DNA of 44,135 nucleotides from a virus, in IMG/VR virus record IMGVR_UViG_3300045988_124156; one strand, 5' to 3'. A program made the position numbers and the translations under genes. The notes beneath the pieces were generated by a model. That model was given only the letters and a program-made list of their open reading frames with translations, did not search any database and was not told where the DNA came from. Shown piece by piece: positions 35,124-35,972 of the stretch; the stretch's first letter is position 1; every line of letters begins with the position of its first letter.

Positions 35124-35972
35124 ATGAGATCGCTAGAGTTATTTGCAGGGATTGGCGGCATCGCATTGGCTGAACAAATGGCTGGCATTGAAGTGGCCGG
35201 TTTGTGTGAGTACTCAGACTACCCGCGCACGATTTTGAAAAAGCACTGGCCAGATGTGCCACTTTTTAAGGACGTGACAAAACTTGATCGAGAAGAACTC
35301 ACAAATGCAGGAATCGAACCCGGCTCAATTGACATTGTTTCCGGAGGTTTTCCTTGCCAGCCTTTCAGTATTGCCGGGAAGCGAAGAGGCACGAAAGATG
35401 ACCGCGACCTCTGGCCAGAAATGTTTAGAATTATCAAGCAAATCTGGCCAACTTGGGTTGTTGGAGAAAATGTTGCTAACTTCGCAAACATGGAACTCGA
35501 CAGAACGCTTTCTGACCTGGAAGGCGCGGGATACCAAGCACGGGCATTTGTATTACCAGCTTGTGCCGTCAATGCCCCGCACCAGCGGCTCAGAACATTC
35601 ATTGTGGCCCACGCCGACAGCAAGCGATACTTTTACCGCGAACCTGAAAAGCAGCCAGCAGAGGATAGGCAGTCGCCATTCAGTAACGTTGCCACAAGCG
35701 GTGAGAATGTTTTGGCTAACTCCGACGGCAACAGATGGGAAAAGAGCAAGCCAGTTTTCAAGCAAAAGTTTATCCAAAGGAAAAGTGAACGGGAACCTAG
35801 CACAACAAGTAGCACACCAGCAAAGTGGCAGCCTGAACCCAGCGTGGGTCGAGTGGCTGATGGGGTACCCAATCGGTTGGACAGAATAAAAGCGTTAGGC
35901 AATGCGGTAGTCCCACAGCAAATACTGCCGATATTTAAAGCAATCGTTCAAATTGAGGAGGCCAACCAATGA
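35124..35972 (+). CDS. DNA (cytosine-5) methyltransferase 1 (short, 282 aa)
   Basis: Motif I LFAGIGG, IV GGFPCQPFS, VI GENV, VIII QRLRTFIV, X LGNAVVPQ. Confidence 0.85.
   Translation: MRSLELFAGIGGIALAEQMAGIEVAGLCEYSDYPRTILKKHWPDVPLFKDVTKLDREELTNAGIEPGSIDIVSGGFPCQPFSIAGKRRGTKDDRDLWPEMFRIIKQIWPTWVVGENVANFANMELDRTLSDLEGAGYQARAFVLPACAVNAPHQRLRTFIVAHADSKRYFYREPEKQPAEDRQSPFSNVATSGENVLANSDGNRWEKSKPVFKQKFIQRKSEREPSTTSSTPAKWQPEPSVGRVADGVPNRLDRIKALGNAVVPQQILPIFKAIVQIEEANQ
35284..35889 (+). other. 201-codon +1-frame ORF nested in methyltransferase 1 with protein-like, methyltransferase-type boxes
   Basis: W-x-TPTA-[ST]-D twice (35605..35628, 35713..35736) and C-terminal LNPAWVEWLMGYPIGWT (35833..35883); see findings. 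Confidence 0.35.

Follow-up and report, generated by a model that had tools for sequence, protein, structure and literature searches.

Introduction

C5-cytosine DNA methyltransferases (C5-MTases) are monomeric enzymes to which M.AquI and M.EcoHK31I are exceptions (PMC3404938). In M.EcoHK31I from E. coli, which recognizes YGGCCR, the beta polypeptide is encoded wholly within the gene for alpha, in a different frame (Lee, Kam & Shaw 1995, described in PMC2836561 and PMC3404938). Alpha contains motifs I-VIII and X, beta contains motif IX, and both are needed (PMC2836561; PMC3404938). The activity was reconstituted from separately expressed genes, with the internal beta starts silently removed, and beta requires its N-terminal part to associate with alpha (PMC2836561). 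M.AquI from Synechococcus sp. PCC 7002 (CYCGRG) is also a naturally split C5-MTase (PMC3404938). In this study, we analysed a C5-MTase gene, here called alpha, and a long open reading frame (ORF) in its +1 frame, here called beta, in the IMG/VR virus record IMGVR_UViG_3300045988_124156, the whole 44,135-nucleotide stretch of which is referred to as the window. Both ORFs are present, both frames are under purifying selection with boundaries of constraint that coincide with those of the overlap, and the arrangement is conserved across phyla.

The two M.EcoHK31I subunits, alpha and beta, are reportedly 309 and 176 aa long, which is similar to the 282 aa and 194-201 aa of the window pair. The layout is alike as well: the small-subunit ORF is located within the large-subunit gene on the same strand but in another frame, in the window as in 156 of 169 relatives collected through beta and all 80 collected through alpha, and the window alpha has motifs I, IV, VI, VIII and X without motif IX. 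This likeness is one of described architecture, and, whereas M.EcoHK31I is part of a restriction-modification system, the window enzyme is an orphan phage enzyme. M.AquI, cited as the precedent in a preliminary description of the locus, is less close to the window: its subunits are consecutive with a short overlap, in contrast to ~580 nt of double coding here, and the window has motif X in the alpha frame and beta fully nested. Nevertheless, the M.AquI layout (motifs I-VIII in alpha; variable region, motif IX and motif X in beta) is present in the relatives L031, L111 and L152.

Canonical monomeric C5-MTases, such as M.HhaI and the second methyltransferase of the window, have motifs I, IV (PCQ), VI (ENV), VIII (QxRxR) and X (GNxV) in the same order, and a virtual alpha-beta-alpha order reproduces the canonical I-VIII / target recognition domain (TRD) / IX / X. 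Unlike these monomers, the window main frame has neither TRD nor motif IX, which leaves the lone polypeptide without a small domain. Methyltransferases of the type found in Bacillus phages SPR, phi3T and rho11s are multispecific orphan C5-MTases with tandem exchangeable recognition modules. The window family recalls them in that its beta proteins contain one to six WPTPTA-type boxes and that the cassette is swapped between near-identical phages, but the SPR, phi3T and rho11s TRDs are in frame within a single polypeptide, whereas the window cassette is in the beta frame.

Results

Two reading frames of one methyltransferase gene

The features of the alpha and beta frames are as follows.

35124..35972, +: alpha gene, 282 aa, ATG start, C5-MTase (ORF list; PF00145, phrog_363, TIGR00675)
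35142..35159, +: alpha motif I, FAGIGG, S-adenosylmethionine binding, outside the overlap (synonymous ratio ~1.0)
35346..35369, +: alpha motif IV, GFPCQPFS (from translation)
35466..35474, +: alpha motif VI, ENV (from translation)
35583..35600, +: alpha motif VIII, QRLRTF (from translation)
35835..35918, +: alpha stretch EPSVGRVADGVPNRLDRIKALGNAVVPQ (from translation)
35898..35915, +: alpha motif X, GNAVVP, 3' of the beta stop (synonymous ratio 1.0 after alpha residue 260)
35268..35272, +: AAGGA, candidate ribosome-binding site of beta, 11 nt before TTG 35284
35290..35295, +: GAGAAG, weak candidate ribosome-binding site of beta, 9 nt before ATG 35305
35305..35889, +: beta gene, +1 frame, 194 aa from the family-aligned start ATG 35305 (ORF list, homologues, synonymous constraint, phrog_1008)
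35326..35346, +: beta QLTLFPE (from translation)
35371..35424, +: beta LPGSEEARKMTATSGQKC (from translation)
35326..35600, +: doubly constrained segment, alpha motifs IV, VI and VIII in frame 0 and the beta N-terminal domain QLTLFPE...LPGSEEARKMTATSGQKC...LTWK... in +1 (frame identity scan; synonymous ratio 1.35-2.35)
35602..35628, +: beta box 1, LWPTPTASD, over the alpha motif VIII tail IVAHADSKR (W, T, P and T columns near-invariant in the beta alignment)
35629..35832, +: beta-dominated variable cassette, where the alpha frame is an unconserved low-complexity spacer (identity scan, alignment)
35710..35736, +: beta box 2, FWLTPTATD, within the variable cassette (from translation)
35833..35886, +: motif-IX-like C-terminal box of beta, LNPAWVEWLMGYPIGWTE, overprinted on the alpha box EPSVGRVADGVPNRLDR (N, P, W, V, E, M, G, F, P, G, W and T near-invariant)
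35887..35889, +: beta stop TAA (from sequence)

Alpha matches phrog_363 over its full length (E = 7e-85), scores above the cut-off of TIGR00675 (dcm), and matches PF00145 with E = 1.3e-40 over profile positions 1-221 of 324. These hidden Markov model matches, with motifs I, IV, VI, VIII and X in the expected order, identify alpha as a C5-cytosine methyltransferase. Because the PF00145 alignment ends at position 221, the main frame has no match to the TRD and motif IX part of the profile, and the earlier claim that this frame has five C5-MTase motifs but no motif-IX-type box was correct. Alpha homologues cannot be aligned with one another from motif VIII to the box EPxVGRVAxGxPxRxDRLKxLGNxVVP, where the sequence is of low complexity and differs in length. 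Alpha thus lacks a plausible TRD or small domain, since nothing is conserved between motif VIII and the C-terminal box, and the spacer between motifs VIII and X is merely kept open with its sequence unconstrained.

Beta is wholly inside the alpha gene, with ~580 nt coding twice, and the distance from the alpha start to the TTG at 35284 (35284-35124 = 160) places it in the +1 frame relative to alpha. The 201-codon ORF of the preliminary description (35284..35889, +) exists and starts at this TTG, although the start of the family aligns with ATG 35305, giving 194 aa. The peptides quoted there for both frames are all present at their places, and LWPTPTASD does overlap the motif VIII tail. In the beta alignment, a conserved N-terminal domain of ~100 aa (EQLTLFPxDSxASxSxLPGSxEAxKMTxTSGxKC...W.ST...LTWK...) is followed by WPTPTAxD-type boxes, the number of which (mode 2) tracks beta length (r = 0.81), and by a C-terminus, LNPxWVEWLMGFPxGWT, that is near-invariant across the family and in the window ends ...EWLMGYPIGWT.

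Start signals were evaluated at the level of the family. ATG codons peak 31 codons upstream of the beta anchor MTxTSG, usually with a +1 stop directly upstream of the ATG. Shine-Dalgarno (SD)-like matches of at least 5 nt precede 45% of beta starts vs 7% of control positions in alpha genes, and those of at least 6 nt precede 24% vs 1%, which amounts to a 6- to 24-fold enrichment. In several Clostridia genomes (L045, L047, L048, L052, L056, L057 and L060), the open +1 frame reaches 75-96 codons farther upstream than the usual start of beta, and N-terminal extensions of ~80 aa are present in some called beta proteins, such as P0069 and P0089. Judging from these open frames, beta may overlap almost all of alpha in such lineages.

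Selection on both frames

The +1 frame of the window is stop-free for 203 codons, whereas codon permutation gives a mean of 71.5 and reaches this length in 0.015% of cases (P = 1.5e-4). Synonymous resampling of the window alpha protein gives 5.45 expected stops in the beta span and a probability of 0.002 for having none, and, although 22 different single-base substitutions could introduce a stop into beta without altering the alpha protein, the window has none of them. For the comparison with relatives, 160 loci were fetched from genomes and viral contigs by beta patterns and combined with nine earlier ones. An alpha homologue overlaps beta, with beta at +1, in all 169 of these beta-ascertained loci, and beta is fully nested in 156. 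Because this set is biased by its selection, we fetched 80 further loci by alpha patterns only, with 34-58% alpha identity. Every one of the 80 carries a homologue of beta in the +1 frame (E <= 1e-11), and the open runs have a median of 241 codons in +1 and 44.5 codons in +2. Outside the beta span, the +1 frame of these relatives has 5-7.5 stops per 100 codons, and the +2 frame of alpha relatives has ~5.8.

Synonymous constraint was measured in 149 non-redundant alpha genes (<80% identity) as the ratio between the frequency with which pairs sharing an amino acid also share its codon and the frequency that pooled codon usage predicts. The ratio is 0.98-1.05 over alpha residues 1-50, including the highly conserved motif I, rises to 1.35-2.6 from residue 61 to ~255, corresponding exactly to the beta span, and is again ~1.0 (0.98-1.05; 1.00-1.02 for residues 261-280) over residues 261-282, which comprise motif X and the C-terminal tail. 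The constraint thus sets in where beta begins and ends where beta ends, as the ratio is raised only between residues 61 and ~255. Its peak, 2.6 at alpha residues 241-250, lies under the C-terminal box of beta.

A frame-by-frame identity scan threaded on the beta alignment ranked the alpha frame above the beta frame, and the beta frame above the third, over motifs IV-VIII. On the 3' side of motif VIII, identity in the beta frame is 0.43-0.77 at the boxes and C-terminus (0.43-0.53 at the boxes alone), while identity in the alpha frame does not exceed that in the third frame, which is non-coding.

Each feature expected of an overlapping gene was therefore found, namely excess length, retention in independently chosen homologues, and synonymous suppression confined to the overlap. 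The proposal of a dual-frame gene with a real +1 protein is borne out, and the three checks suggested with it, on homologues of the +1 translation, on synonymous suppression and on shuffled sequences, all came out in its favour; compositional bias is excluded. The nearly stop-free minus-strand frames pointed out in the same place have open runs of moderate length in the window (113 and 137 codons), but they are not consistently open in the 149 relatives, where the median minus-strand open run is 0.31-0.35 of alpha length vs 0.75 for +1. Since relatives do not keep this openness consistently, it is regarded as a by-product, and the minus-strand ORFs (35219..35623 and others) were rejected as genes. 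A pseudogene or 'frozen frameshift' was also rejected, both frames being intact and selected in hundreds of lineages.

Homologues and annotation

A search with beta gave 1732 homologues (40-58% identity, 93-97% coverage) without a Pfam family, and phrog_1008 matches beta with E = 1e-35. At E <= 1e-3, the beta profile matches 40,967 cluster representatives (50% identity); at E <= 1e-10, the number is 24,286. The tblastn matches come from Bacillota, Proteobacteria, Leptospira and Bacteroides (phages and plasmids) and are located under coding sequences annotated as 'DNA cytosine methyltransferase'. In PGAP-annotated plasmids and most phage records, the methyltransferase alone is listed and beta is not called. 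Because Pfam, NCBIfam and PGAP do not model beta, phage and prophage methyltransferase genes of the nested type are annotated as single-subunit. Nested pairs have been called in Paenibacillus phage Diva (gp49 and gp50, 'g49 internal gene') and in E. coli phage K1G (ORF31 and ORF30, 'Mte8-like protein'). The Paenibacillus phage papers contain no discussion of the 'internal gene', and no open-access paper tying phage methyltransferases to the EcoHK31I architecture was found. The database search with K1G beta gave close Kagunavirus relatives only, and there is no named EcoHK31I protein among the matches listed for window beta or K1G beta.

Cassette exchange and variant architectures

The window comes from a temperate phage of Lacticaseibacillus (casei/rhamnosus group), and its methyltransferase region is 91-97% identical to those of phages R23.9, R9.1 and Lc-Nu. 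Between the window and Lc-Nu, both flanks are ~95% identical at the nucleotide level, and the cassettes between box 1 and the MG(F/Y)P box are unrelated (35629..35832 of the window vs ~2020..2190 of L001, the Lc-Nu locus). Both frames are open across the exchanged cassette in both phages. This difference suggests a modular exchange of a putative recognition cassette.

Several relatives have different arrangements of the two frames. In L031 (1771..2915), L111 (1789..2969) and L152 (1771..3056), which include Brevibacillus and viral contigs, alpha ends just after motif VIII, and the beta frame runs through LMGFPIGWTD to ...RLKACGNAVVP, so that motif X is in the beta frame. It follows from this layout that the C-terminal half of beta and the TRD-IX-X half of canonical enzymes are colinear. 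In L027 (1991..2585, Ligilactobacillus pabuli) and L051 (1976..2543, Marinococcus luteus), alpha also stops after motif VIII, and the beta N-domain and one box are in frame with an alpha-type C-terminus, ...DRLKALGNAVVPQ; these two are either a third architecture or decaying copies. P0003, P0007 and P0019, close relatives from public assemblies, are called ORFs that pass from the alpha frame into the beta frame. They look indel-made because they are joined at three different positions, and they are probably indel variants or assembly errors, yet they represent natural alpha-beta fusions.

The genes downstream differ among these phages. In R9.1, R23.9 and Lc-Nu (L001-L003), the alpha/beta gene is followed directly by a different methyltransferase gene of ~235-240 aa (Lc-Nu ORF41). 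In the window, two small ORFs and then a 389-aa C5-MTase gene are located 3' of alpha/beta, and a gene like Lc-Nu ORF41 is absent there. The gene directly 3' of the methyltransferase in the prophage-like region L004 (3671..4621) has a long run of GNA(W/R)VYG(D/N)A-type repeats, across which further long ORFs are open (3819..4583 in a second + frame and 3687..4343 on the minus strand). These extra ORFs are probably a repeat-driven artefact of ORF listing.

A second nested reading frame

The 389-aa methyltransferase of the window also contains a nested ORF, here called beta-2; the pair has the following features.

36424..37593, +: second, complete canonical C5-MTase, 389 aa (PF00145 positions 1-322 of 324)
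36556..36562, +: AAAGGAG, strong SD of beta-2, 6 nt before ATG 36569
36569..37003, +: beta-2, nested +1 ORF, 144 aa from ATG 36569 (PHROG 16143 match)

At the same place, the +1 frame is open for 124-217 codons in all 81 genes compared (80 alpha-ascertained relatives and the window gene), with a +2 median of 46 codons. The synonymous ratio of the second methyltransferase is 1.67 inside beta-2 and 1.06 and 1.13 outside. Homologues of beta-2 are found under annotated methyltransferases of C. difficile phages, Streptococcus prophages and Lactobacillus phages. Like the window beta, beta-2 spans motifs IV-VIII of its methyltransferase, but it cannot be a donor of motif IX, because its host methyltransferase is complete and canonical. 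Comparison of the profiles of the nested ORF of alpha (beta-1) and beta-2 gave a colinear but not significant match (E = 0.047).

Discussion

Since the window pair has the same architecture as M.EcoHK31I, we consider it probable that the locus encodes an orphan phage C5-cytosine methyltransferase of the M.EcoHK31I type, made of two polypeptides and active only as a heterodimer. One mRNA would be read in two frames, with alpha translated from frame 0 and beta from an internal +1 start (ATG 35305 or TTG 35284). Alpha would provide the AdoMet-binding and catalytic core (motifs I, IV, VI and VIII), followed by the unconstrained spacer, the conserved C-terminal box and motif X. Beta would consist of the N-terminal domain overprinted on alpha motifs IV-VIII, the two WPTPTA-type boxes and the motif IX-like end, which resembles the RLQGFPDW motif of the second methyltransferase of the window. 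By binding to alpha, possibly through its overprinted N-domain, beta would supply the small (DNA-recognition) domain that alpha does not have; only the alpha-beta heterodimer would methylate DNA, and the methylation would guard the phage genome from host restriction. Beta translation, alpha-beta association, the role of beta as TRD and motif IX donor, and the biological role are what we infer from the comparison.

Several observations weigh against this reading. The literature places the TRD of EcoHK31I in alpha, whereas in the window it is the beta frame that holds the conserved, repeat-bearing and cassette-swapping region. Only a weak SD precedes the beta start of the window itself. The C-terminus of beta would be motif IX by resemblance of the motif only: apart from phrog_1008, its sole library match, beta has no match in Pfam, NCBIfam and PDB sequence searches, and hhalign found no meaningful match between the beta profile and the canonical methyltransferase of the window. 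Virtual fusions of alpha (I-VIII), beta (boxes, IX) and motif X, made for the window and L031, did not raise the PF00145 score, although the alignment of the L031 fusion reaches profile position 292, over the motif IX-like box, without a gain in score. AlphaFold2 modelling of beta alone with 95 sequences gave low confidence, with a predicted local distance difference test (pLDDT) of 56 and a predicted template modelling score (pTM) of 0.22. Furthermore, a conserved +1 ORF is nested in the complete second methyltransferase too, so such products may have a task other than providing motif IX.

The last point is also the best support for an alternative in which beta is a genuine translated overlapping gene but not a methyltransferase subunit, acting in methyltransferase regulation, anti-defence or DNA binding, while alpha alone suffices with its spacer as a minimal TRD. 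The conserved and selected +1 ORF over motifs IV-VIII of a methyltransferase that is itself complete (PF00145 1-322 of 324) speaks for this alternative, as does the lack of detectable sequence homology between beta and solved methyltransferases. However, alpha offers no plausible TRD, its sequence between motif VIII and the C-terminal box being unconserved; the boxes and the ...LMGFPxGWT end of beta lie exactly where a TRD and motif IX would, in the same order and with motifs of the same style; the beta frame of L031, L111 and L152 continues into motif X, colinear with the canonical C-terminal half; and a nested beta is required for the activity of M.EcoHK31I (PMC2836561). We therefore regard a non-subunit beta as unlikely. 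That the +1 ORF is open by chance or through codon or composition bias, with 'homologues' that are shadow translations of methyltransferase DNA, is refuted. It is true that the single-gene synonymous resampling P of 0.002-0.007 is non-negligible, that some beta conservation over motifs IV-VIII necessarily follows from alpha conservation, and that minus-strand frames are fairly open too. Yet all 80 alpha-ascertained relatives retain the ORF at 34-58% alpha identity, against ~5.8 stops per 100 codons in +2, and the synonymous constraint stops at the beta boundaries, motifs I and X, equally conserved as protein, showing none. The frame identity scan, in which the beta frame is better conserved than the alpha frame 3' of motif VIII, and the conserved SD and ATG at the beta start point the same way. 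Compositional bias and chance were rejected on the retention, the constraint and the scan.

Recoding would involve two events, a programmed +1 frameshift of the ribosome behind motif VIII and a shift back ahead of motif X, making one polypeptide of canonical order of which the +1 ORF is the shifted middle. Canonical C5-MTases indeed share the linear order alpha (I-VIII), beta (boxes, IX) and alpha (X), some variants change frame only once (L031, L111 and L152), and fused ORFs of close relatives are found in databases (P0003, P0007 and P0019). We nevertheless hold this to be very improbable. Upstream of motif VIII, ~100 codons of beta are open and conserved, with a conserved SD and ATG after a +1 stop, all of which would be superfluous for a frameshift product, and alpha stays open through the unconstrained spacer in 156 of 169 loci, as is needed only if it is read straight through. 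Moreover, each protein would need two shifts, the three distinct junctions of the database fusions are what random indels would give, and no slippery site is evident by eye, with no formal search, at 35595-35630 or 35880-35895. The conserved SD and ATG of beta, directly after a +1 stop, are also at odds with a programmed frameshift gene, in which a conserved slippery site and a stimulator mark the frame junctions and the shifted frame has no start of its own. Among the four options originally listed, two proteins or a split two-subunit enzyme are thus favoured, and recoding and frozen frameshifts are disfavoured because of beta's own SD and ATG, its selected N-terminal part and an alpha frame kept open through the unconstrained spacer.

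By analogy, the heterodimer that we favour would be of an already known, albeit obscure, kind, the nested two-subunit C5-MTase of the M.EcoHK31I type, which has been described for one E. coli enzyme. What is new is the wide distribution of the nested kind in phages, the placement by selection of the putative recognition cassette in the beta frame, and the presence of nested ORFs of a second type in complete methyltransferases. Tentatively, and with rather more doubt than confidence, one may go further and speculate that nested +1 genes over motifs IV-VIII are a general, ancient and essentially unannotated feature of phage C5-MTases, with beta-1, rather than the catalytic chain, carrying a modular recognition cassette and beta-2, which occurs inside complete canonical methyltransferases including those of C. 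difficile and Streptococcus prophages, being a second, distinct hidden protein. If so, phages could exchange specificity and leave the catalytic frame intact, as the cassette exchange between the window and Lc-Nu suggests.

In prokaryotes and double-stranded DNA phages, long same-strand overlaps (~580 nt) with conservation across phyla are seldom found and often contested, and the ~41,000 50%-identity clusters (E <= 1e-3) constitute a large natural data set on two proteins in one sequence. Cloning alpha alone, or recoding or codon-optimising it, would lead to a silent loss of beta. The arrangement also bears on methylome assignment, on REBASE-style specificity prediction and on the use of phage methyltransferases against restriction barriers; if beta carries the recognition cassette, specificity would have to be predicted from beta, not from alpha.

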